A DNA stretch of 36,933 nt. Source: an uncultured Clostridia bacterium (GTDB taxonomy: Bacteria > Bacillota > Clostridia > Lachnospirales > CAG-274). A program made the translations under genes and the position numbers. Shown here in pieces: positions 2,110-36,552 of the stretch. The stretch covers positions 1-36,933 of the forward strand of contig CAMOYW010000001.1 in the NCBI GenBank assembly GCA_946630405.1, in the 5' to 3' direction. Numbering within the stretch: position 1 is the first letter of the stretch; every line of letters starts with the position of its first letter. The notes below the pieces were generated by a model. It did not search any database and was not told the DNA's origin. It was given only the letters and a program-made list of their open reading frames with translations.

Positions 2110-3144
2110 TTATTTTTCCTCCTTGTATTTAAGTGTGTCTATCGGTTTGCCTACCGTTGAATACTTATCTAACAACCCGTCAGCTTCCAAAGCCTTTTCG
2201 TTGTACTTCCTGCGTCCAGGGGTGCGTGTAACATACCACTTACCGTAAACGGCGTGATTATCGCTCTCTGTCAGATTACTTACTAATTTTTCCTTGATTG
2301 CCACCTTCAAAGCATCTAACCTTTTCACATCTGCACCGATCTTTTCTTCGAGTTCCATTTGTGAAACGGATATTTTAAGAATAAGCTCGTCGGCTTCTTT
2401 TGTCAACGCTTCAAGGTCAACATCGTCGGAAATGTAATTAGTCCGTAACTCTTTGATAATGTCCTTATCAGCATCGGTGTAATCCGGTGAGATACCCTTT
2501 AACACCTGCTCATTCCAAAAACGGGTAGCATCTGCAAGCATACCGTCAAAGTCAGGGTAACGCTCATGTACCTTGAATTCCACCGTAACCGTATTCTCTG
2601 CGGAAGGTACGAACTTGTCAGGGTGAGAATAGTCGCTCTCTTTAAGGAACGAGCATACCATAATGACATTCTCCGTACCGAGCAGGTAGGCATATAACGC
2701 CGCCTGAAGTGCGTAGTATTCGGGAACATCATTCTTCCAATCTTCCGCACGCTTTGTGGTCTTGAACTCCAATACAGTTTCGGGCTTCTCGTTATCGTCT
2801 ACGAGAATACTATCCCACATACCGCCGAATATCGGATTGCTCTTGAAGAAGTCGCCGTGTGTCTTATTGAAGAAGTCCTCACCGAATACATCAGTAGGTG
2901 TACGCAGGTTATCCATAACATACATTTCCTTCATATACTCAATCTGCTTCGGCTCGATTGTCTTACCTGCGATAGTGTAAATGGAATCCTCGAACGGTTC
3001 TTCGTAAACCTTCGTCATTTCACACCACACCTTAAAGGGTGTATTCCACCTATTCATTCCGAGCACCGCCCCGAATCTCGTACCCGTCAGCTTCTTTGTA
3101 CGCTTCGGGGGATCTACCTCTATGTGATTATCTACAAACTTCAT
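2110..3144 (-). CDS. YqaJ/lambda-Exo-like PD-(D/E)XK recombination exonuclease with C-terminal coiled-coil extension
   Basis: 344 aa. The N-terminus LTGTRFGAVLGMNRWNTPFKVW is typical of YqaJ-type nucleases. The LEFKTTKR motif (ExK) is present. It overlaps the upstream pol-ERF gene by 4 nt. Confidence 0.75.
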   Translation of the reverse strand: MKFVDNHIEVDPPKRTKKLTGTRFGAVLGMNRWNTPFKVWCEMTKVYEEPFEDSIYTIAGKTIEPKQIEYMKEMYVMDNLRTPTDVFGEDFFNKTHGDFFKSNPIFGGMWDSILVDDNEKPETVLEFKTTKRAEDWKNDVPEYYALQAALYAYLLGTENVIMVCSFLKESDYSHPDKFVPSAENTVTVEFKVHERYPDFDGMLADATRFWNEQVLKGISPDYTDADKDIIKELRTNYISDDVDLEALTKEADELILKISVSQMELEEKIGADVKRLDALKVAIKEKLVSNLTESDNHAVYGKWYVTRTPGRRKYNEKALEADGLLDKYSTVGKPIDTLKYKEEK

Positions 3145-5711
3145 GCGTCTACCTCCGACGGCATATTAGCCTTCTCCCACTCGTCGTAAGCCTTATTGCA
3201 AAGCTTAATGTACTTCTCGCAACCTGCCTTCGTTATATTAGTTAGGTTAGTAGTTTCCGTACCGATCTTTGCGATAACCTTTCTCAACTTCGTATCTTCG
3301 GTTTTGCCAAGCTTCTTCATAAGCTTCTTCAGCCCGCTAATCTGTAACTCGCTCGCATGCTCGTCAGCACCTACGATTTCTTTTGCCGTTTCTGCCCTCT
3401 CATTTGCCGTTAGAGGGGCTTTCGGTACGGAAACGGTAGTAGATACCTTTTCGTTGTTAGGAACGGTTGTAGGCTCAATCTCGTCGATTACACACAAGTC
3501 TAATGCGAGGTAGTAAAGATACCTACGAAGATAAGTGTGTGATGCACCCAAACTCTGCACCGGATTGATAGCTCTGTTCTCCGTCGGGTAACGCATCGGT
3601 GATGTAAACGATACATTTTCTTCAGGGTTATCCGTGTTGACAATGGTAAGCACCGCCAAATCTTCAGTAAATCTTACTACGCTGATAAGCCCGTACTCGT
3701 TGAACAGTTTAGTAACACGGGGTACGAAGTCCGAAAGCTCGAAGTATTCATACTGAATTGACGAATTCTTACCGCTCTGCTTCACGCTGCCGTCAAGGAT
3801 CTCCGCTCTAACCTTGTTAAGCTTCTGATATACATTCAGCTTCGAGTAGTCAGGGGCTTTCTTGACTTCGGGTGCAGGGGCTTCATTCTTGACCGTAGCC
3901 TTCTTTGTGGGAACGGCCTTCTTTTCTGCTTCCTTAATAGCGTCCATAATGGTTTCCTCCTTCTTAAACGCTTGTATTTTCTTATTTGCCATAGCAATAT
4001 AGAACGATTTATCTACATCACTTATTGCACAATGGTTATCATTGTCGATTACACAATGGTCGGGTATCGACGGTATCTTTATTCTCTGCTCGCCCTTCGT
4101 CTTGTAGAGTGTTCCGCAGGTCATATCACTTGTGGCATAGACACGGTTACACTTCTGTACCTGGATTTCTGCTCCGTCCTTGATATAAACCGCTCCGTCA
4201 AACTTCGAGCTTGCCCTTGCGATAAACTGAAATTTCTTTATGTCGTCGCAAGCGTTGATGTATTCAGCAGGATCTACACCGTGTACTAAATTCTCGACAA
4301 TAGCTTCTGCTACGACTACCGCATCGTTGTTTACCTTGAACTGTCCTACGGTAGATATACCCCTTACGAGATCGCCACCCTTCGTCTTAATGCTTCCGTC
4401 CGGCTCTACCCAAATGTAGTTATTCACATCTTTTTGGTGAAGCTCTTTGATGTTATCGACTTCGAGGGTGAAGCCCGTTCTCTCCTGCCACTCTTTGAGG
4501 ATTGCATCTACGGCTTCCTTCTGCTCCGCATCTATCTCGTACATAACACCGTCGGTATTAAGCTGCACGATAACAAGTCCTGGAATGTCCTTGTAAAGAT
4601 GCTCTGCAAGCTCCAAAAGGTATAATTGTCCGTCCATACATACCGAATGTGCCATGAGGGGATCGTAAAGGTCATTAAACGGTGCTCCTGATGCTCCGTA
4701 TGTCGTATTGACAATCAGCTTCAAAGCATTAGCCGTAGCCTTATCTCCTGCCTTCTTCGCCTTCATACGAGTTTCTAATATGTCCTCGAATATCTTGTAA
4801 GACGGGATATTCCTTGAAAGATGCTTCTTCAATGACATATCGTGAGGGTAAAAGCTTCCCACATCAGCATCAAACAAAAGCCTTCCGTTACCTTCCTTGA
4901 ACTCGTATTGAGGGATAGCGGCATGAATACCGCCCCACGCTACTTTGACCGGACAATCTCCGATAAAGAAGTCATAGCACTTCTCTTTAGGATCGTAGGT
5001 TTCCGCATTGTCGATAGCTTCCTGAAAGAAGTCTACTACACCCTGCGGTATGTACTCGTAAATAACATCGGAAGGGAATGTAAGGCAAAACTCGTCGTTA
5101 TGCTCCGCTCCGTTTGCTTTAAGCATCTTTGCCGTCAACTGTGCGTTAGTCAAAGCGGAAGCATCTAACTTCTCCATACCTGCAAGGTCGCCTACCTTTA
5201 CCTTGTTAGCAAAGTAATCTGTACGCAGGTCGTAGATAGCAAGGGCTGCATCTACATCGTGCCTGCAATACTTGATCGTTTCCTTAATCTGCTTCTTCGT
5301 CAGCTTCTTCGGATAATCGAACGGTATTGAACTCTCTACGATGTTCATATACAGATGCCCTTCAAGCCCCTTCAACGAAGTCGGGTAAGCATCGAGGTAA
5401 ACATCTATGTTATTCAGCTTAAAGCCGCCAGGTGCGAAGTCAGGGTACTTCCAAGCCGGATTACCTGCGATAATCCAATCATTCAACGCCTTCAATTCTT
5501 CAGGTGAGAAGCCCTCGATTACACCACGCATAATCCACTTATCGTAGGAATTAGTGTTGTAGCCGATAAATACATTCTCCTTATCGTCAAACAGTTCCTT
5601 GACCGCATCGTTATCGTTGACTATATCAAGCCACTTACCCGTTGCCTTATTCTTAAAGCACACAAGCCAATCGTGTGCAAAAACTTCAAAATCATAACCC
5701 CAAAGCCTCAT
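3141..5711 (-). CDS. Family-B-like DNA polymerase (3'-5' exo + pol) fused to an ERF-type single-strand annealing domain
   Basis: A single 856-aa frame. Exonuclease motifs: ExoI YDFE, ExoII YNTNSYD, ExoIII YCRHDVD. Polymerase motifs: A DADVGSFYP, B KLIVNTTYG, C QLNTDG. Residues ~623-745 are ERF-like: KQSGKNSSIQYEYFELSDF and LGASHTYLRRYLYYLALDL, compared from memory with P22 Erf FGKYKYRSCEDI and GATSSYARKYCL. Confidence 0.8.
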   Translation of the reverse strand: MRLWGYDFEVFAHDWLVCFKNKATGKWLDIVNDNDAVKELFDDKENVFIGYNTNSYDKWIMRGVIEGFSPEELKALNDWIIAGNPAWKYPDFAPGGFKLNNIDVYLDAYPTSLKGLEGHLYMNIVESSIPFDYPKKLTKKQIKETIKYCRHDVDAALAIYDLRTDYFANKVKVGDLAGMEKLDASALTNAQLTAKMLKANGAEHNDEFCLTFPSDVIYEYIPQGVVDFFQEAIDNAETYDPKEKCYDFFIGDCPVKVAWGGIHAAIPQYEFKEGNGRLLFDADVGSFYPHDMSLKKHLSRNIPSYKIFEDILETRMKAKKAGDKATANALKLIVNTTYGASGAPFNDLYDPLMAHSVCMDGQLYLLELAEHLYKDIPGLVIVQLNTDGVMYEIDAEQKEAVDAILKEWQERTGFTLEVDNIKELHQKDVNNYIWVEPDGSIKTKGGDLVRGISTVGQFKVNNDAVVVAEAIVENLVHGVDPAEYINACDDIKKFQFIARASSKFDGAVYIKDGAEIQVQKCNRVYATSDMTCGTLYKTKGEQRIKIPSIPDHCVIDNDNHCAISDVDKSFYIAMANKKIQAFKKEETIMDAIKEAEKKAVPTKKATVKNEAPAPEVKKAPDYSKLNVYQKLNKVRAEILDGSVKQSGKNSSIQYEYFELSDFVPRVTKLFNEYGLISVVRFTEDLAVLTIVNTDNPEENVSFTSPMRYPTENRAINPVQSLGASHTYLRRYLYYLALDLCVIDEIEPTTVPNNEKVSTTVSVPKAPLTANERAETAKEIVGADEHASELQISGLKKLMKKLGKTEDTKLRKVIAKIGTETTNLTNITKAGCEKYIKLCNKAYDEWEKANMPSEVDA

Positions 5712-9961: not shown

Positions 9962-10303
9962 ATGATTAAGAAGGTCGACACATTAGCAAATAGGCTATCT
10001 TACGCTATGAAGATGCAAAATGTAGGTGTTTGCGAATTGGAACGATCAAGCGGTGTAGCGAAGGGTTTAATATCAAGGTACATCAACGGTCTAAAATTTC
10101 CAAAAGACAATAACATCAACCGCCTATCCAAAGCCCTTCATGTGAACCCTGAATGGCTAAAAGGCTACGATGTACCGATTGCAGCTACACCCGTCAGCGT
10201 TACCACCGACGAAGAACGGTTGCTCGCCTACTATCGTGCCTTAACCGCTATTCAGAAAGAAGCTTTGCTCGATAAACTTACGGGGGATAACGAAGATGCC
10301 TAA
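9962..10303 (+). CDS. cI-like XRE-family repressor (no S24 peptidase domain)
   Basis: 113 aa. The HTH is MQNVGVCELERSSGVAKGLISRYINGLKFPKDNNINRLSKALHVNPEWL. It is divergent from the cro-like gene, with AAGGGGGTG upstream. Confidence 0.8.
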   Translation: MIKKVDTLANRLSYAMKMQNVGVCELERSSGVAKGLISRYINGLKFPKDNNINRLSKALHVNPEWLKGYDVPIAATPVSVTTDEERLLAYYRALTAIQKEALLDKLTGDNEDA

Positions 10304-11393
10304 AGCTTATTATGACGATGCACGGAAGCGGTGGGTTATTGATGGTCAAAAGGACGGTGTGAGAAAAATCTTCACATCTACGAAGAAGGGATTATCAGGA
10401 AAGCGAGAAGTCATATCCAAGTACGAAGCGTGGCGTGATTATGGCGGTGATAACCCTGCTCCTATCACCGTAGAAAAGGCCGTAGAGCTTTTCCTTGAAG
10501 ATGTATGTACCCGATATGGTAAAGATAGCGAAAGCTATCGTGGAGCGGAAATATACACCCGTGTATACATACTCCCTGCCTTTAGACACAAAGCAATAGC
10601 AAGTGTGAAGCTATCTGATTGGCAATCGCTTATAAACCACGCTAAACCGCACTCTAACCAAACAGAAGTGCTATCGAAGAAAACCCTTAAAAATCTCCGA
10701 TCCGTAATCAATCGACTTCAGAAGTATTGCTATAACAATTACTATACTGAAGCGTGGCGTGGTGAACTCTACATACCCGAAGGACACCCGACAATCGGTA
10801 AGGAAATTCTGCAACCTGCGGATATTCAGCGACTATTTGAACCGTCTAACCTATGGTATCACCCTTGCTTCCTTGTAATGATGCTATGTGGGCTTCGCCC
10901 AGGTGAATGTTTAGGCTTGCAAGTGGACGATATAAAAGACGGCATAATCCATGTCAGACGGGCTATAAACGATTCTAACCAAATAACTCACGGTAAGAAC
11001 CGGAACGCTATTCGTGATATACCTGCTCCGAAGCAGGCATTAGAGATTATCAATAAAACGATTGAGCGTAACAAATCTTGCGGATTGCAAACCAAGTGGA
11101 TATTCTGCGGATATTCGGGTGAACACGGTAATCAATCCACCTTGCGTACACAATGGTACATCTTGAAGCGTGAACGGGATCTCCCAGGTTGCCCGTATGC
11201 ACTCCGTCATACATTCGTATCTATCGTATCTGCTCAATCCCACATATCGGAAGGTAATCTGAAGATGCTATTAGGACACTCGAAGTCTATGGATACTTAC
11301 GGTGTCTACAATCATAGCGTAGACGGTGAATTGCAGAAAACGGCTGCCGTGATTGATACAACCTTCGAGAAAATAAGAAAAGCCGCACCGTGA
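10296..11393 (+). CDS. int: Tyrosine site-specific integrase
   Basis: 365 aa. Catalytic-region signatures are present: GLRPGECLGL (Arg I), YALRHTFVS (HxxR) and LLGHSKSMDTYGVYNH (His and Tyr). Its start overlaps the cI-like stop by 8 nt. Confidence 0.92.
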   Translation: MPKAYYDDARKRWVIDGQKDGVRKIFTSTKKGLSGKREVISKYEAWRDYGGDNPAPITVEKAVELFLEDVCTRYGKDSESYRGAEIYTRVYILPAFRHKAIASVKLSDWQSLINHAKPHSNQTEVLSKKTLKNLRSVINRLQKYCYNNYYTEAWRGELYIPEGHPTIGKEILQPADIQRLFEPSNLWYHPCFLVMMLCGLRPGECLGLQVDDIKDGIIHVRRAINDSNQITHGKNRNAIRDIPAPKQALEIINKTIERNKSCGLQTKWIFCGYSGEHGNQSTLRTQWYILKRERDLPGCPYALRHTFVSIVSAQSHISEGNLKMLLGHSKSMDTYGVYNHSVDGELQKTAAVIDTTFEKIRKAAP

Positions 11394-31192: not shown

Positions 31193-31227
31193 GAAACATT
31201 CCTCCTTTTCAGCCTTCATATGTCGTC

Positions 31228-31256
31228 ATAATAACTCACAATTTTGTGTTTCACAA
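31228..31256 (-). promoter_or_regulatory. Promoter TTGTGA-17-TATTAT with embedded operator CACAATTTTGTG
   Basis: The minus strand reads TTGTGA (31256-31251), a 17-nt spacer, then TATTAT (31233-31228). The palindrome at 31237-31248 lies in the spacer. It shares the blocks tcataataa and tttgtgtttca with the cro promoter at 9861-9883. Confidence 0.55.
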
Positions 31257-31425
31257 GTGCATCAACCCGAAAATTTGTAGCCTTTTGAATTTTTGCTTAA
31301 AAATTAAACAAAAGAATTTGAGGAAAATAGGGGGTGCAATTTTTCTTTACTATTTCAAAGAATTCTAATCAGATAAAATTCACTCTTAACGGCTGAATCA
31401 GGATCAGGGCAAATTCGCAGAATTT

Positions 31426-31439
31426 CACAAAATTTTGGG
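31426..31439. promoter_or_regulatory. Operator-like near-palindrome CACAAAATTTTGGG
   Basis: One mismatch from CACAA-N4-TTGTG, about 180 bp upstream of the 31228-31256 promoter. Confidence 0.35.
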
Positions 31440-31878
31440 TATTTTAAGTGAAAAGTGAGTTTTTTGAACGATTTTTCCTATAAGTTCTCCCTATATAGGT
31501 AGGTTGGCTTTGTATTTGAGAAACTTATAGAAAATATCGTCGAATAACAACTATAAAACTAAAAGAATTTTTAACATATTAAACGAGGTTCGTATCTGTT
31601 TTTCTACGATATATCTGCAACTTATTGTGAATTTGTATCGTAAAAAGAACGATATTCTTGTAAGAAAAACGAACTGAAGATTTGCTGATCGTCGGTGGGT
31701 GGAGAATGGTGGAAAGGGTTGATAAAAAAGGCTTTTAAGGGCTTCGGGTGATTTCACGCCCACCCCCGCCCCCTCTCCGATGCCTGGCAGCCCCTGGGGG
31801 TGTCCGGTCAAGTGTACGCCATACACGGACAATTACACCGAATTATAAAACGGGTGTATGTATCAAGTATAGATAACG

Positions 31879-31907
31879 CTCAAACCCTTTATTTTCAAGG
31901 GTTTGAG
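31879..31907. repeat. 11-bp perfect hairpin CTCAAACCCTT-N7-AAGGGTTTGAG
   Basis: Seen directly. Its 3' arm extends as GGTTTGAGGGT (31900-31910), whose reverse complement recurs at 32052-32062. Confidence 0.7.
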
Positions 31908-31992
31908 GGTGCTATACGAATTTGGAAATTCGGCAAAATTATTCTTTTGTGGAATTAGAACGGGTGTATCAATGAAATTTTACAGTTAGGAC

Positions 31993-32011
31993 TGCGCAAC
32001 TTTTGCGCAAC
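31993..32011. repeat. TGCGCAAC x2, 11-bp phased
   Basis: tgcgcaac-ttt-tgcgcaac. Each unit contains the palindromic core TTGCGCAA or TGCGCA. Confidence 0.7.
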
Positions 32012-32016
32012 AAATG

Positions 32017-32043
32017 ATTTTCATTTCACTTTCAAATGAAAAT
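32017..32043. repeat. 10-bp perfect AT-rich hairpin ATTTTCATTT-N7-AAATGAAAAT
   Basis: Seen directly. The 13-nt GATTTTCATTTCA (32016-32028) is repeated exactly at 32086-32098. Confidence 0.7.
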
Positions 32044-32126
32044 ATAATAAAACCCTCAAACCTATACCCGACAAGGCTTTCAGCCGATTTTCATTTCAAA
32101 ATTCAAATGTAACCAAATTATGAATT

Positions 32127-32155
32127 TGCGCAACTTTTGCAATTTGTTGCGCAAC
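32127..32155. repeat. TGCGCAAC x2, 21-bp phased, second copy inside the perfect palindrome GTTGCGCAAC
   Basis: tgcgcaacttttgcaatttgttgcgcaac. It shares TGCGCAACTTTTGC with 31993-32006. Confidence 0.7.
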
Positions 32156-32320
32156 TCATGTAGTATAATTCCATACCATTATATTATACTCAATTATAAA
32201 CGGCTTTAATTGATTGTAGATTGCCTTGTATGCTCTTTGCTTTAGTGAATGAATATAAATATATACCCGTATAGCTAACAAGGCAATACGGGCTAAATTT
32301 GAGGGGTTTGTTATTCCGGT

Positions 32321-32338
32321 GTTATTACCTGGAATTAT
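32321..32338 (+). repeat. 18-bp direct repeat GTTATTACCTGGAATTAT (left copy)
   Basis: An exact match to 35529-35546. Degenerate copies of CCTG(G)AAT(T)A lie at 32351-32359 and 35490-35498. Confidence 0.85.
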
Positions 32339-32373
32339 GTTATTGTCGATCCTGAATTATAGCAGCAATAATA

Positions 32374-32397
32374 ACACCCGCCTATTATAGCGGGTGT
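32374..32397. terminator. Hairpin ACACCCGC-N8-GCGGGTGT at the end of the cassette operon
   Basis: An 8-bp perfect stem 6 nt downstream of the 23-aa ORF stop. On the minus strand it is followed by TATTATTG. Confidence 0.5.
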
Positions 32398-32402
32398 ATA
32401 TA

Positions 32403-32474
32403 TCATTTTGACTTTTTAACAATATCTGAAATTATCCAAAAGGGAAACAATAGCAGTAATAACAATTCAATCAT
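32403..32474 (-). CDS. 23-aa hydrophobic peptide (below the ORF-track cutoff)
   Basis: Hand translation gives MIELLLLLLFPFWIISDIVKKSK. AGGAGG lies 7 nt upstream, and it overlaps the upstream ORF by 8 nt. Confidence 0.4.
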   Translation of the reverse strand: MIELLLLLLFPFWIISDIVKKSK

Positions 32475-32601
32475 GTTTTGCTCCTCCTACCTGGTATAAT
32501 TCACCGTTGATTATTACTTCTACATTATAGCCGGCGGTGATAGCATCTTCTATTACTCGCGTGATTTCTTCGACGGTGTAAACCTTGTTATTATATATCA
32601 T
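32467..32601 (-). CDS. 44-aa protein (below the ORF-track cutoff)
   Basis: Hand translation gives MIYNNKVYTVEEITRVIEDAITAGYNVEVIINGELYQVGGAKHD. Its ATG overlaps the clamp-like gene's TGA (ATGA). Confidence 0.45.
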   Translation of the reverse strand: MIYNNKVYTVEEITRVIEDAITAGYNVEVIINGELYQVGGAKHD

Positions 32602-34010
32602 GCGGTAATACCTCCATTTTGAATTGTATACACGGCGGCTATCAACTCGACACCTGAATTATAAATGTGCCCGCGTGCTTTTTGCATCTGATTTATCATA
32701 TCTTTGTGCTCGCGTGCGTATGCTTCCGAGTAATCAACGGCGGCGGGTGTCGGTGTATAATTGCGCTTTTTAAGTGCTACTATCATGCACGCGGTTTTGT
32801 ATACTGCATTATATATCGCTTCAGGGATAGCAGGCGCGGCGGGTGTATTGCCGGCGGTATCTTCTACCGCTTCAGGCGTGCTCGTATCGGGTGCAGTGTC
32901 CGGTGTAGGATCTTCAGCAGCAACGGGCGCGGGTGCTTCCGTGATGTTATCGGGCGCGGTATCTTCTACCGGTGCGGGTGCGTCCTGGATTACTTCAGCA
33001 GGTGCGGCGGGCTTTACCTTGTTAATAATATCTTCTACCTCGTACGGAGTAAACCTAATAGGCAATACAAGCGAATTATAGCCGGTGGCGGTGCTATCTG
33101 TAAAAATGATAGGAGCGGCCGTTTTATTATCTTCAAAATTGATTGTATCAGCGCCGCCTTTTAAGGCCGTGTATACATATTCCGGATTTAGTGCAACGGT
33201 AAAAATATACTCGTTATCGTTACCGGTGATGTTAAACTCTTTGTAACCGCCTACCGTGCTACTATCGAAGGCAACGATTAAACGATTGCCGGATAGCTTA
33301 AACAGGAGCGGCGCGGGCCTATATTTGTTATCAGGATCTTTAAGGCCGCGCATAGCATCAACGAATGATAGCAGCTCCTTGTTATCGAATGTTATACCGC
33401 GGCGGGTGCTATTAGTATTATAAATTGCTTCAAGGTTTATAAAATTGCCCGCGAGTAATCGCGCATAAAATACCGCGCCGGTGTCCGATGTGATACGGGC
33501 GTACTTTTCACCCGCTTCGATTGTTACGGCCTTTTTAAGCCCTCCAAACGCAAGCACGGCCGCCGGTATATTTATACTAACATCGCGCGCGGTGTCGATC
33601 TGGTAACGAGTAGCGCGAAAACCGTCGCACGCTTCAATATAACCGCCGCCAATATGTAAACCGGTTAAAATAGGGCGGGTGGTGTCTTTGCTCGCATAGT
33701 TTGCAATATGCTTTAGGATAGATACATCAACAGTACAAACGGGCGCGAACTCGTCAACGGGTAAATCATAGCAATCTGTATTAGTGGCAATCTCACCGCC
33801 GGCAAAAATGCCTGATTTACTTGTATAATCCAAGGCGGCGGGGGTGTATGTTTTGCCGGTATCCTGTAAAGCTGCTTCTACTTCAGCGGTGAAAAGTATT
33901 GATGCGTCGTCATTAAATGCGACTATAGCACCGGCGGGCGTAATGTATGCCGGTATCATGCTCTTCTTTGTGATCTTCTTAGCGATCTTTGCAACTTCTG
34001 TATTTTTCAT
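32598..34010 (-). CDS. DnaN-like sliding-clamp homologue with Pro/Ala/Thr-rich linker and extra C-terminal helical domain
   Basis: 470 aa. Clamp-like landmarks appear in the correct order and spacing: TTRPILTGLHI...ACDGFRAT (cf. ATDGHRLA), LLAGNFINLEAIY (cf. GxFPDY), ALNPEYVYTALKG (cf. FNxxYLxDxL) and SLVLPIRF (cf. VVMPMRL). Then comes PAAPAEVIQDAPAPVEDTAPD... and a ~70-aa tail. Confidence 0.6.
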   Translation of the reverse strand: MKNTEVAKIAKKITKKSMIPAYITPAGAIVAFNDDASILFTAEVEAALQDTGKTYTPAALDYTSKSGIFAGGEIATNTDCYDLPVDEFAPVCTVDVSILKHIANYASKDTTRPILTGLHIGGGYIEACDGFRATRYQIDTARDVSINIPAAVLAFGGLKKAVTIEAGEKYARITSDTGAVFYARLLAGNFINLEAIYNTNSTRRGITFDNKELLSFVDAMRGLKDPDNKYRPAPLLFKLSGNRLIVAFDSSTVGGYKEFNITGNDNEYIFTVALNPEYVYTALKGGADTINFEDNKTAAPIIFTDSTATGYNSLVLPIRFTPYEVEDIINKVKPAAPAEVIQDAPAPVEDTAPDNITEAPAPVAAEDPTPDTAPDTSTPEAVEDTAGNTPAAPAIPEAIYNAVYKTACMIVALKKRNYTPTPAAVDYSEAYAREHKDMINQMQKARGHIYNSGVELIAAVYTIQNGGITA

Positions 34011-34013
34011 GGT

Positions 34014-34184
34014 TTAAGCCTCCTTATTAATAATGTTTTCGAGTGTTTCCAGAATCTTCTTAAAATCCTCTGTTATAAAATGCGGGTATTTTTGCGCTAT
34101 TTCTTCAACGGTGTGATGCGAGTAATAGCATAAAGTATCTTCTATTGTTTCCAATTCTTCAGGGGTTATAGTGTATTTTTTCAT
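34014..34184 (-). CDS. 56-aa acidic protein (below the ORF-track cutoff)
   Basis: Hand translation gives MKKYTITPEELETIEDTLCYYSHHTVEEIAQKYPHFITEDFKKILETLENIINKEA. AGGAGG lies upstream, and its stop is 3 nt before the clamp-like ATG. Confidence 0.5.
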   Translation of the reverse strand: MKKYTITPEELETIEDTLCYYSHHTVEEIAQKYPHFITEDFKKILETLENIINKEA

Positions 34185-34202: not shown

Positions 34203-34859
34203 TTATCCGGTAATTTTTCCGGTTACTAAATCGACTTCGCAGGAATTACCAACGGCAAAATGTCCGTTATTATCGCGGGCGTACTTTGTAACCCTTACTA
34301 TTTTGTGATCCTCATTCCAGGTATCACCAACTTCATAGAAGCAATCACCGTAATTTAAGGCGGTAACATTTCCAACTATATCGCGCTCGCGGTAGCCGCC
34401 TTCCTTTTGAATGATATTTAATGCTGCTTCTTTTACTAATACAACGCCGGTATACTTTGCGCCGATCTTATAACGGTTTACCACCGTTAAAATATTTTCG
34501 CGGGTGTATTCCAGGTGCATATTATAAAATTCACGCTCAAAGGTAGAATTTCTATAACTTGATGTTATCGGCGTGCCGTCCTTGCAATATGAATGTATAA
34601 CATCATACTGTGTATCAAGATACATACCATTTTCTAAATCTACAGTATAAATGGGCTTTTTGAGCGGTGCGCCGGTGCGCTTGTTTTCCGTTCTATAATG
34701 CCAATGTCTACCCTGTAAAAACTCGAAAAACATATTGTATGTTTTGCCGTCATACATAATATCTATGTTTTCGAGTACGCGCACACGGTGATTTTTAATA
34801 TCCGTGCTGATATTAGCATCTTTACAACCCATTTCTAATAAATACAAATTGTTTTTCAT
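34203..34859 (-). CDS. Hypothetical protein (218 aa), first gene of the cassette operon
   Basis: An ORF with AAAGGAGG upstream. No family recognised by eye. Confidence 0.65.
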   Translation of the reverse strand: MKNNLYLLEMGCKDANISTDIKNHRVRVLENIDIMYDGKTYNMFFEFLQGRHWHYRTENKRTGAPLKKPIYTVDLENGMYLDTQYDVIHSYCKDGTPITSSYRNSTFEREFYNMHLEYTRENILTVVNRYKIGAKYTGVVLVKEAALNIIQKEGGYRERDIVGNVTALNYGDCFYEVGDTWNEDHKIVRVTKYARDNNGHFAVGNSCEVDLVTGKITG

Positions 34860-34913
34860 TTTGTTTACCTCCTTTTATTATGCCGTTATCGGCGGGTTGT
34901 TTTACTTGCCTTA

Positions 34914-34942
34914 ATTGTACTTTGTATGGTACGCAATTACAA
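34914..34942 (-). promoter_or_regulatory. Promoter TTGTAA-17-TACAAT for the cassette operon
   Basis: The minus strand reads TTGTAA (34942-34937), a 17-nt spacer, then TACAAT (34919-34914). The -35 lies inside the repeated motif TGGTACGCAATTACA. Confidence 0.5.
34927..34941. repeat. 15-nt motif TGGTACGCAATTACA (copy 1)
   Basis: Repeated exactly at 34999-35013. A 12/15 copy, TGGTATACAATTACG, lies at 35841-35855. Confidence 0.7.
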
Positions 34943-34976
34943 CTATACATAATAACTAATTCCGTACCTTCTAAAT

Positions 34977-34991
34977 TATGCAATTTGCATA
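34977..34991. promoter_or_regulatory. Perfect 7-1-7 palindrome TATGCAA-T-TTGCATA
   Basis: Located in the divergent intergenic region between the 218-aa and 129-aa genes. Confidence 0.5.
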
Positions 34992-34998
34992 CTTTTAG

Positions 34999-35013
34999 TG
35001 GTACGCAATTACA
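34999..35013. repeat. 15-nt motif TGGTACGCAATTACA (copy 2)
   Basis: An exact repeat, 72 nt from copy 1 and just upstream of TATATAAT (35014-35021). Confidence 0.7.
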
Positions 35014-35066
35014 TATATAATAAAAGCAGGTTATAAACCAATAATTAAATTTTGGAGGTATTAGAT

Positions 35067-35441
35067 ATGAAAAATTTTTCAAACCTTGAATTAAAGGCAA
35101 TCTATGACGGTTTAAACAACGGCTTGGAGTATAGCCTTGTTACAATGGAGCACGGCGGTTATATACACGGCCGTATTTATAAATCCGGTGATTATATTCA
35201 TTATCAGGTTCACGGAAGCAGCACAATTAGTAACACCGTTGAAGATCTGAAATGGTTATTAACGGTATTATTCAAGGGCTTTGATGATGTAACGCCGTCG
35301 GTATACTCTTATGAGATATTCAATTCTGTAGATTTAACCGGCCGGTATCATTCTATTGATGTTAGCCGTTATCATGACGAAATACCCGAAACGATATATA
35401 ACGGTGAATTCTATTATAAGATAGCAAACGGTAAAGCATAA
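35067..35441 (+). CDS. Hypothetical protein (124 aa from the ATG)
   Basis: GGAGG lies 8 nt upstream of the ATG at 35067; the track start at 35052 is a TTG. A strong terminator follows. No family recognised. Confidence 0.65.
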   Translation: MKNFSNLELKAIYDGLNNGLEYSLVTMEHGGYIHGRIYKSGDYIHYQVHGSSTISNTVEDLKWLLTVLFKGFDDVTPSVYSYEIFNSVDLTGRYHSIDVSRYHDEIPETIYNGEFYYKIANGKA

Positions 35442-35461
35442 CACATAAACGCACCAATAAC

Positions 35462-35486
35462 GCCCGCCCGCCGGCGGGCTTTTTTA
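35462..35486 (+). terminator. Rho-independent terminator GCCCGCC-cgcc-GGCGGGC-TTTTTT
   Basis: A perfect 7-bp GC stem with a T6 run, 21 nt after the stop at 35441. Confidence 0.8.
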
Positions 35487-35528
35487 TTGCCTGGAATACA
35501 TCACGCGCCGCCGCTCGTAGCAGGGGCG

Positions 35529-35546
35529 GTTATTACCTGGAATTAT
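35529..35546 (+). repeat. 18-bp direct repeat GTTATTACCTGGAATTAT (right copy)
   Basis: An exact match to 32321-32338. Confidence 0.85.
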
Positions 35547-35750
35547 CAGCAACGGCCGCCGGTGATATAATGTCGATATTATGCGAGTATTGCCGGCTCG
35601 CGATCCCGTGGAGCTGCTACCACCCGCCCCAATTTGTTATACTTTTGTAATATTATCAAAGCGTAACACCGCCCACCGAAGATCTCATTTTTACATATTT
35701 GTAAATTCCATTTTCCATTCCACCCGCCCGCTCGCCTGCGTGTGCGTGCA

Positions 35751-35796
35751 AAAGTCGAAAGTCGAAAGTCGAAAGTCGAAAGTCGAAAGTCGAAAA
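35751..35796 (+). repeat. Tandem heptamer (AAAGTCG)x6 + AAAA
   Basis: GTCG starts at 35754, 61, 68, 75, 82 and 89. Dispersed copies are AAAGTCGAAAGTCGAAGG at 36141-36158, AAAGTCGAAGG at 36538-36548 and AAAGTCG at 36593-36599. Confidence 0.9.
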
Positions 35797-35822
35797 TGCG
35801 TTCCACAAATTGTACTTTAATA

Positions 35823-35851
35823 TTGAGTTCGGACTTCTTGTGGTATACAAT
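35823..35851 (+). promoter_or_regulatory. Promoter TTGAGT-17-TACAAT for the HTH operon
   Basis: TTGAGT (35823-35828), a 17-nt spacer, then TACAAT (35846-35851). The -10 lies inside the TGGTATACAATTACG motif. GGAGG at 35861-35865 precedes the ATG at 35875. Confidence 0.5.
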
Positions 35852-35874
35852 TACGCTAATGGAGGTACAATACT

Positions 35875-36177
35875 ATGTCAGATCGAATTGTAGAAGTCGG
35901 AAACTATGTAACGCTTGAAGAATATGCAAAGCGTCATGGCATCACCGTCGGAGCGGTAAGACAGAAGATTAAGCGTGGCTATCTTCCGTGTAAGCGATTA
36001 GGCACGGGTAGGCGGTGCATGATCCTGATACGAGCTAACGAGCCGTGGGAAGCACACAAGCCAGGTGTGAAGAAGGGAAGCAAAGTCGCACATCGTCGTA
36101 CGAAGGCTGAAATGGAAGAATACCGTAAGCAGCAGGCCGAAAAGTCGAAAGTCGAAGGTGGTGAAAATGACGCTTAA
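35875..36177 (+). CDS. Excisionase/MerR-type (HTH_17-like) DNA-binding protein with basic tail
   Basis: 100 aa. VTLEEYAKRHGITVGAVRQKIKRGYLPCKRLGTGRRCMILI fits the Xis/AlpA-type winged-helix pattern. Confidence 0.6.
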   Translation: MSDRIVEVGNYVTLEEYAKRHGITVGAVRQKIKRGYLPCKRLGTGRRCMILIRANEPWEAHKPGVKKGSKVAHRRTKAEMEEYRKQQAEKSKVEGGENDA

Positions 36178-36385
36178 AGAATTCTTATATTGTGCTACAA
36201 GCACCGTTCAGATAGTCGAAGGGCCTGACGAAAACTACGCAACTGTTTTAATAGTTCCGTCGGAAGGGATTGACGAATGGAATGACAATATAGCACCCGA
36301 ATTCTTGAATCGTAAGGTGTGCTTGTTTAGTGCAAAAGCTGAAGATGTTATAAAAGTTTATCTTGAAAAGGAAGGTGCGGTATGA
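36167..36385 (+). CDS. Hypothetical protein (72 aa)
   Basis: The ATG at 36167 has GAAGGTGG upstream and overlaps the upstream gene by 11 nt. The track start at 36158 is a GTG. Confidence 0.55.
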   Translation: MTLKEFLYCATSTVQIVEGPDENYATVLIVPSEGIDEWNDNIAPEFLNRKVCLFSAKAEDVIKVYLEKEGAV

Positions 36386-36552
36386 CACAAACTACCTGGA
36401 TTGCCGATACTTGCCCGAAGTGCGGTGTGAGCAAATATAACTTCTTCACGGTGATTAAAGGTGCTAACGGTGAACGCACCAAGCCGTTAGGAACATGGAA
36501 TTATTGTCCGGCGTGTGGTGCTGATTTACGGGGTAAGAAAGTCGAAGGATAG
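36382..36552 (+). CDS. 56-aa zinc-ribbon protein (below the ORF-track cutoff)
   Basis: Hand translation gives MTQTTWIADTCPKCGVSKYNFFTVIKGANGERTKPLGTWNYCPACGADLRGKKVEG. It has CPKC...CPAC, and its start forms an ATGA overlap with the upstream gene. Confidence 0.5.
   Translation: MTQTTWIADTCPKCGVSKYNFFTVIKGANGERTKPLGTWNYCPACGADLRGKKVEG

Follow-up and report, generated by a model that had tools for sequence, protein, structure and literature searches.

Few hubs of DNA metabolism are as conserved as sliding clamps, and a 36,933-nucleotide (nt) stretch of DNA from an uncultured Clostridia bacterium (contig CAMOYW010000001.1 of assembly GCA_946630405.1; hereafter the window) raises the question of whether a temperate phage has turned such a clamp to a use of its own. 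The window spans the greater part of a 41.9-kb contig from a temperate tailed phage (a siphophage), and the gene in question (32598-34010, minus strand) encodes a 470-amino-acid (aa) protein from an ATG start preceded by a GGAGG ribosome-binding site (RBS). An earlier note, made from the sequence alone, had recognised landmarks of the bacterial beta clamp, DnaN, in this protein. We find that it descends from the bacterial beta clamp and joins a core of DnaN domains II and III to a remodelled N-terminus, an acidic tether and a C-terminal domain private to its family. With a probability of roughly 40%, we read it as a neofunctionalised, phage-specific beta-clamp paralogue that acts as a hub for recruiting partners, most likely when phage DNA is replicated or recombined.

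The core is homologous to DnaN domains II and III

The middle of the protein is genuinely homologous to DnaN, and to domains II and III only. Its best family-level match is PHROG 947, 'DNA polymerase processivity factor' (E 8.8e-23), in which residues 93-319 align with positions 129-364 of a 368-position profile that describes a full three-domain clamp and is therefore covered only in part. TIGR00663 (dnaN) is matched over a similar span (E 4e-8, residues 98-319 against 137-366 of 367), at a score of 32.5 bits that lies far under the equivalog cut-off of 137.65, and a Pfam scan of the protein found no DNA_pol3_beta, DNA_pol3_beta_2 or DNA_pol3_beta_3 domain even at E <= 1. The family profile matched the C. 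difficile clamp 7YBD with E 2.6e-11 (residues 94-322 against 133-366), and profile-profile alignment by hhalign against an alignment of Bacillaceae and E. coli DnaN gave a probability of 97% and E 3.7e-11 over residues 82-320 (DnaN 125-377), a match that begins exactly at the inter-domain connector (YDLPVDEF against EYPHLPQIEE). Against the single E. coli DnaN sequence, the signal from both hhalign and HMMER was too weak for use.

The fold agrees with the sequence. An AlphaFold2 (AF2) model built with 25 family sequences reaches predicted local distance difference test (pLDDT) values of 80-93 in the core and 80-89 in the C-terminal domain, compared with ~30 in the linker and less than 50 in residues 1-85. 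When this model was searched against the PDB with Foldseek, as the earlier note had suggested, the top 50 matches were all bacterial beta clamps, with root-mean-square deviations of 3.5-4.5 Å over ~260-280 columns, or 7-8 Å once the N-terminus was included. The beta-clamp landmarks that the note had read from the sequence are borne out by PHROG 947, TIGR00663, hhalign and Foldseek alike.

Domains II and III, the cleft residues, the LPxR motif and the connector are all shared with bacterial DnaN (C. difficile 7YBD, E. rectale 3T0P, B. subtilis 4TR6 and E. coli 1MMI). However, the protein has no recognisable domain I (92 aa in its place, against ~125), carries ~150 extra residues at its C-terminus, and is encoded by a phage gene that lies beside neither dnaA nor an origin; with no domain I, scores below the cut-off and added domains, it stands outside DnaN proper. 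Phage beta clamps (PHROG 947, and the BFVD entries of 345-395 aa named DnaN or beta clamp) have the same DnaN-type fold, and the two-domain core superposes on BFVD phage proteins of 211-251 aa with target-normalised TM-scores of 0.65-0.74. Two-domain phage factors (217 aa in Bacillus phage vB_BcM_Sam46, 246 aa in Escherichia phage Seurat and 222 aa in Xanthomonas phage Suba), as well as PCNA and T4 gp45, consist of the two domains alone, whereas the protein described here adds conserved parts at both ends. Extended phage clamps of 440-594 aa are also present in BFVD; these are few and uncharacterised.

The partner-binding cleft is the most constrained surface

The positions of the E. coli clamp-binding-motif pocket were mapped onto the family through bridging Firmicute sequences, starting from E. 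coli and B. subtilis DnaN sequences 100% identical to 1MMI and 4TR6, respectively. Seventeen of the 23 pocket positions carry the same residue or a conservative substitution in the family. The mapping pairs E. coli R152 with R112, L155 with L115, T172 with C128, G174 with G130, H175 with F131, R176 with R132, P242 with I191 (likewise in C. difficile), V247 with I196, N320 with N275, Y323 with Y278, S346 with P300 (likewise in Firmicutes), V360 with L314, M362 with L316, P363 with P317, M364 with I318 and R365 with R319. At the sequence level, the protein therefore has the hydrophobic cleft between domains II and III that marks DnaN, including its C-terminal (M/L)P(M/V/I)R motif.

Across 25 sequences reaching down to ~30% identity, 13 of the 23 pocket positions are invariant, compared with 13 of the 207 core positions outside the pocket (Fisher p = 1.2e-8), which makes the cleft the most constrained surface of the protein. 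Its conserved residues are R112, L115, C128-A133, I191, N275, Y278 and L314-R319, and the invariant blocks comprise I125-R135 (IEACDGFRAxR) and the LxLPIR at the end of domain III. The conserved cleft is predicted to bind such motifs. Its conservation agrees with each of the three roles that had been proposed for the protein, i.e., a processivity factor for the phage's PolB-Erf enzyme, a decoy or a scaffold. Conserved Lys or Arg residues also lie in or beside the core helices of the AF2 model (K100, K159, R221/K224 and K284), and the basic N-terminal helix has two invariant lysines, K11 and K16; in the model, both features would match the needs of a DNA-facing ring surface.

A remodelled N-terminus, an acidic tether and a private C-terminal domain

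DnaN has three tandem domains of ~110-125 aa each. Here, domains II and III are preceded by 92 aa, as against ~125-135 in DnaN, which leaves the N-terminus ~30-40 residues short of a full clamp domain. This region is well conserved inside the family. A search of the PDB with the N-terminal profile returned no match, and the N-terminus showed no similarity to the protein's own domains II and III; with local hhalign failing as well, its identity with domain I could not be demonstrated. In a forced global alignment to DnaN domain I, the first helix with an 'IP' motif and two strands pair, at negligible confidence, and judging from the sequence pattern, the beta-hairpin of the second half of domain I seems to be missing. 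Beneath the basic N-terminal helix (AKIAKKITKK) the DNA contains a 12-nt tandem repeat in 2.3 copies (33962-33989); the linker DNA has no tandem repeats.

On the other side of the core, the linker (residues 335-394) contains 16 Ala, 12 Pro, 8 Thr, 7 Asp and 6 Glu and has a net charge of -13. Its length and sequence vary among relatives; it is always acidic and rich in Pro, Ala and Thr. The four-helix domain that follows ranks with the best-conserved regions of the protein and is kept even where overall identity falls to ~30%, with the pattern IPxE...L...N..P......G..Y.....AA shared by the most distant relatives. No homologues of this domain were found in Pfam, PHROGs, NCBIfam or a PDB profile search, and an exhaustive HMMER search of its profile against 1.84 billion representative proteins returned only its own family; because the profile was built from the main family alone, even the distant subfamily was not recovered. 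The short N-terminus, the low-complexity linker and the extra helical domain that the earlier note had described are thus all real features of the protein.

The four-part architecture defines a family

Word-indexed searches of 5.8 billion protein clusters yielded 21 full-length relatives with 54-96% identity, additional fragments (P0022, P0023 and P0027) and a distant trio (P0024-P0026) of 483-504 aa with 29-33% identity. The distant trio keeps all four parts: an N-terminus of 105-107 aa, the DnaN II and III core, an acidic linker rich in Pro, Ala, Thr and Glu, and a helical C-terminal domain of ~75 aa. All relatives were assembled from metagenomes, and none carries an annotation. No relatives were found in GTDB representative genomes or IMG/VR, and none was detectable by BLAST in INPHARED/GenBank phages. 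Nor did the literature searched contain a description of this four-part architecture.

One of the fragments, P0023 (58 aa), joins the N-terminus of a small upstream protein of 71-73 aa (MKKYxGFEYNEAG...) in frame to the last ~46 clamp residues (YAREHK...). It represents either a natural deletion variant that has lost nearly the whole clamp gene or an assembly artefact.

The clamp gene lies in a compact operon with a variable first gene

The clamp gene is the third of five genes, encoding in order the 218-aa, 56-aa, clamp-like, 44-aa and 23-aa products, each with a GGAGG RBS and tightly coupled to the next (Table 1). The earlier note had described the genes as locked together by ATGA-type overlaps, which holds for the junction between the clamp and 44-aa genes only: the 44-aa gene shares 8 nt (ATGATTGA) with the 23-aa gene, the stop of the 56-aa gene precedes the clamp ATG by 3 nt without any overlap, and 18 nt separate the 218-aa from the 56-aa gene. 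None of the operon neighbours matched a Pfam, PHROG, NCBIfam or PADLOC family, and the PADLOC defence models matched none of the clamp-like, 218-aa, 56-aa and 44-aa proteins.

Table 1. Parts of the clamp-like protein and elements of its operon, with positions in the window.
Feature	Position	Strand	Remarks
Promoter-like site TTGTAA-17-TACAAT	34914..34942	-	Consensus match only; regional count of promoter-like sites equals shuffle expectation
30-nt direct repeat (TACTTTnnnTGGTACGCAATTACAnnTATA)	34918-34947 and 34990-35019		In divergent intergenic region; one copy encloses the promoter-like site
218-aa protein	34203..34859	-	First operon gene, variable slot; no Pfam, PHROG, NCBIfam or PADLOC match
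56-aa acidic protein	34014..34184	-	Kept across main family as 53-73-aa versions
N-terminal region, residues 1-92	33735..34010	-	Family-specific; basic first helix (K8, K11, K12, K15, K16)
DnaN domains II and III, residues 93-322	33045..33734	-	Profile and structure matches; conserved clamp-binding-motif cleft
Helix (322-332), then disordered acidic linker, residues 323-394	32829..33044	-	Sequence composition, AF2
Orphan four-helix C-terminal domain, residues 395-470 (76 aa)	32601..32828	-	Conserved in both subfamilies
44-aa peptide, motif VIINGELYQV	32467..32601	-	ATGA overlap with clamp gene
23-aa hydrophobic peptide (LLLLLFPFWIISDIVKKSK)	32403..32474	-	Conserved in L001, L002 and L006
Intrinsic-terminator-like hairpin ACACCCGC-TATAAT-AGGCGGGTGT with T-rich tail	32374..32397	-	Ends operon; conserved in L006 and L001

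The first position of the operon varies among the related phage loci (designated L001 to L008, with L001 on contig JAMQYI012382327.1 and L007 on scaffold_281 of ERZ28573719). The 218-aa protein of the window recurs only in L001 (89% identical), and its place is taken by an unrelated 229-230-aa protein in L002, L004, L006 and L007, of which L005 has a 231-aa version, and by a third unrelated protein of 242 aa in L003. It is the 229-231-aa protein, and not the 218-aa one of the window, that the main and distant subfamilies have in common (the L002 and L005 versions are 38% identical). The slot upstream of the clamp genes may therefore be a hotspot for accessory genes, and an obligate pairing of the 218-aa protein with the clamp is rejected given that three unrelated proteins fill the slot in different relatives. 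Of the two co-occurrences that the earlier note had proposed to look for, the one with the 56-aa gene holds throughout the main family, and the one with the 218-aa gene holds in L001 only. The 44-aa peptide is present in the window, L001, L006 and L007, forms the N-terminus of a 134-aa protein in L005 and is absent in L002. The 242-aa protein of L003 has weak, concordant matches to PRTase-associated wHTH and PRTase_III-A defence models (Pfam E 0.005, PADLOC E 0.003).

The operon is an integral part of a temperate phage lineage

A CI-like repressor and an integrase are encoded at 9962-11393 (plus strand), and the replication and recombination module on the minus strand encodes a RecU-like resolvase, a SNF2/ResIII helicase, a PolB-Erf fusion, a YqaJ exonuclease, a single-stranded DNA-binding (SSB)-like protein and an archaeo-eukaryotic-type (AEP) primase, with a D5-type helicase encoded just beyond the window. 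Genes for a CHAP endolysin, tape measure, portal, and large and small terminase subunits (TerL and TerS) are also present. The closest matches of TerL are in a [Clostridium] innocuum phage (40% identity) and in phage contigs from human faeces; together with the nearest clamps, this similarity points to gut Bacillota as hosts.

The clamp operon lies between the early and late regions, flanked on one side by a short opposite-strand operon that includes a Cox-like helix-turn-helix (HTH) protein, and on the other by ~1.1 kb devoid of genes, beyond which come three small genes and TerS-TerL-portal. The same arrangement is found, where visible, in L001, L002, L003, L006, L007 and L008, indicating that the cassette is an integral and old part of the phage lineage and not foreign. 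The gene's guanine-plus-cytosine (GC) content, 0.46, equals that of the genome. A foreign insertion is therefore rejected, and with it the earlier description of the cassette as foreign-looking; the note's observation that the gene sits outside the replication module stands. The gene has its own operon adjoining the late region, and its neighbourhood is conserved elsewhere, in the same position in all eight related loci.

Several other features of the locus were recorded. The PolB-Erf fusion (3141-5711, minus strand, 856 aa) is an unusual polymerase-recombinase fusion, with a family-B-type DNA polymerase in residues 2-587 (PHROG 1252, E 2.5e-145) and an ERF single-strand annealing protein in residues ~576-841 (PHROG 155 / Pfam ERF). 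The gene-free region (31220-32370, minus strand, and above all ~31700-31990) is conserved in L001, L002 and L006, in some blocks more strongly than the proteins encoded on either side. RNAalifold applied to four sequences of this region gave a multi-stem consensus with compensatory changes in three pairs, comprising a long-range CCGAATT/AATTCGG stem around a hairpin, a further hairpin (TTGTCC/GGACAA) and a G-rich one on the 3' side. The region is a candidate structured leader RNA or non-coding RNA, or a pac, cos or ori site; an Rfam scan of 30-36.9 kb gave no match. A palindrome, TTGCGCAA, occurs in four copies arranged in two pairs (31993-32016 and 32126-32161) that are not conserved in L006, L001 or L002, and a 21-nt repeat, TAnAnCGGGTGTATnnATCA, occurs in three copies (at 31846, 31956 and 32386).

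Upstream of the clamp operon, the divergent intergenic region (34860-35066) adjoins the opposite-strand operon (35052-36552, plus strand), whose products are a Cox-like HTH protein of the excisionase/repressor kind (PHROG 575, E 2.5e-9), a zinc-ribbon protein of 56 aa and two further proteins of 129 aa (conserved) and 75 aa; together, they may form a second regulatory switch besides the CI/integrase module at ~10 kb. In L001, TerL (L001 12812-15490) has 892 aa, compared with 554 aa in the window and other relatives, which suggests an insertion of the intein or homing-endonuclease type.

Discussion

The observed homology, fold, architecture, cleft conservation, synteny and operon structure are those of a beta clamp that has kept domains II and III and the hydrophobic cleft, with a domain I that would have been remodelled and shortened. 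In the function that we favour, the clamp part would engage DNA, a motif-bearing polymerase or repair protein, or both, through the canonical cleft, and the private four-helix domain, added at the C-terminus on a flexible acidic tether of ~60 residues, would recruit a second, phage-specific partner. The C-terminus of clamps sits on the partner-binding face. The protein would then work as a built-in 'tool-belt' hub during the replication or recombination of phage DNA. Its partners, its encirclement of DNA, its oligomeric state and its timing are all inferred. The reading is supported by the homology and fold of the core, the invariant cleft, the conserved basic residues, the retention of all four parts in a subfamily at 29-33% identity, the tightly coupled operon in its fixed position and a phage that has its own replication module (PolB-Erf, SSB, AEP primase, D5 helicase and SNF2-type helicase).

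A number of observations weigh against this reading. No clamp loader is encoded in the 41.9-kb contig, and a scan of the phage proteins for clamp-binding motifs, which had low power, found none at a terminus of PolB-Erf or of any other protein and only three internal, unconvincing matches. The clamp gene is not part of the replication module but has an operon of its own by the late region, where it comes behind a variable-gene slot. A weak Pfam match suggests that PolB is of the DNA_pol_B_2 type, and protein-primed polymerases of this type need no clamp. Residues 1-81 show no homology to domain I by HMMER, by local hhalign against the DnaN profile or by Foldseek, and AF2 leaves the first 85 residues under pLDDT 50. 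Furthermore, the equivalent of the E. coli dimer-interface residue I272 is not hydrophobic but Gly, Thr, Arg or Ala in the family; with no detectable domain I and a non-canonical residue at this position, a canonical head-to-tail ring is not assured. Clamp-loader-free proteins of the processivity fold exist in herpesviruses, whose UL42 and UL44 hold the polymerase tail in a cleft and have long disordered C-terminal tails. However, the DNA-binding face of UL42 is strongly basic, whereas the core described here is about neutral in charge and its linker strongly acidic, and neither protein appears as a sequence match or a top-ranked structural match.

The non-canonical domain I and interface residue would also be expected of a ring-incompetent clamp mimic that captures host clamp-binding proteins (PolC, DnaE, clamp-loader delta, MutL, YabA etc.), either shutting down host replication or repair or passing the captured proteins to the phage machinery via the tethered C-terminal domain. 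Such a decoy or hijacker, which we regard as possible though rather unlikely, would agree with a cleft that is the most constrained part of the protein, with a phage that brings its own polymerase, and with a gene placed in a separate operon outside the replication module. Phages are known to encode proteins directed at the host clamp, and the C protein of Mu titrates it (PMC12867686). However, the conserved basic residues of the core helices and N-terminal helix suggest, in the model, that contact with DNA is retained, and mere loss of function does not explain why the N-terminus is so strongly conserved. At the opposite extreme, the protein would be an ordinary replicative clamp whose domain I has diverged past recognition and whose C-terminal extension is functionally unimportant. 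Phage beta clamps are common and diverse, the extended forms of 440-594 aa in BFVD among them, and in the forced alignment DnaN domain I does pair with two strands and with the first helix and its 'IP' motif. Against this account, to which we give only a slim chance, stand an N-terminus that lacks ~30-40 residues, a TIGR00663 score far below the cut-off, an empty Pfam scan, and a C-terminal domain that ranks among the best-conserved parts and is still present at ~30% identity.

The place of the operon, directly upstream of the conserved ~1.1-kb candidate structured leader and the late TerS-TerL-portal operon in all relatives, raises the prospect of a DNA-tracking clamp that couples replication to late gene expression or packaging, its C-terminal domain contacting RNA polymerase, a late activator or the terminase. 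Work on Mu, whose late transcription depends on the C protein and the host DnaN, shows that phages use clamps beyond replication, and an analogous mechanism has been described for T4 (PMC12867686). T4 gp45 with gp33/gp55, and Mu C with host DnaN, resemble the present case as mobile hubs and in a gene at the early/late boundary, a likeness that is conceptual only. We judge such coupling distinctly unlikely: it is argued from position only, and no sigma-like, Mor/C-like or other activator, nor a motif-bearing sigma partner, was found among the operon neighbours and late-leader genes, the motif scan being of low power. In addition, the T4 clamp gene itself sits among the replication genes, so the location of a clamp gene is not diagnostic. 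A related and improbable proposal is a clamp-derived adaptor without a self-sufficient ring, in which co-translated small peptides would complete or regulate domain I in trans and the orphan domain would couple replicating DNA to RNA polymerase at the late leader or to the terminase. The 44-aa beta-alpha-beta-beta peptide has a hairpin, VEVIINGELYQVGG, that resembles the one apparently missing from domain I; its absence in L002 weakens the case for it as a universal trans-complement. Finally, the operon could be a moron-like accessory cassette of the prophage, acting in superinfection exclusion or counter-defence with the clamp-like protein as sensor or scaffold. It is self-contained, with a promoter-like site and a terminator, its first slot holds three unrelated proteins (one with the weak PRTase-associated defence matches), and it ends in a tiny membrane peptide. 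However, neither the clamp-like protein nor its neighbours match PADLOC, and the clamp gene is never swapped out, is co-oriented with the lytic genes and has a genome-like GC content, which leaves this explanation quite improbable.

Whichever role applies, this phage lineage has kept the partner-binding half of a clamp under strict constraint, rebuilt the domain that closes the ring and fused a tethered private domain to the other end. With 470 aa and clear domain boundaries the protein is a tractable target, and its conserved cleft makes it a natural probe for the clamp-binding proteins of gut Bacillota. Should the adaptor reading prove right, temperate phages of Gram-positive bacteria would be using a clamp in a new way. 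Its partners, if identified, would reveal how a phage with its own polymerase joins or blocks the clamp-binding network of its host, or would uncover a new coupling of replication to late functions.

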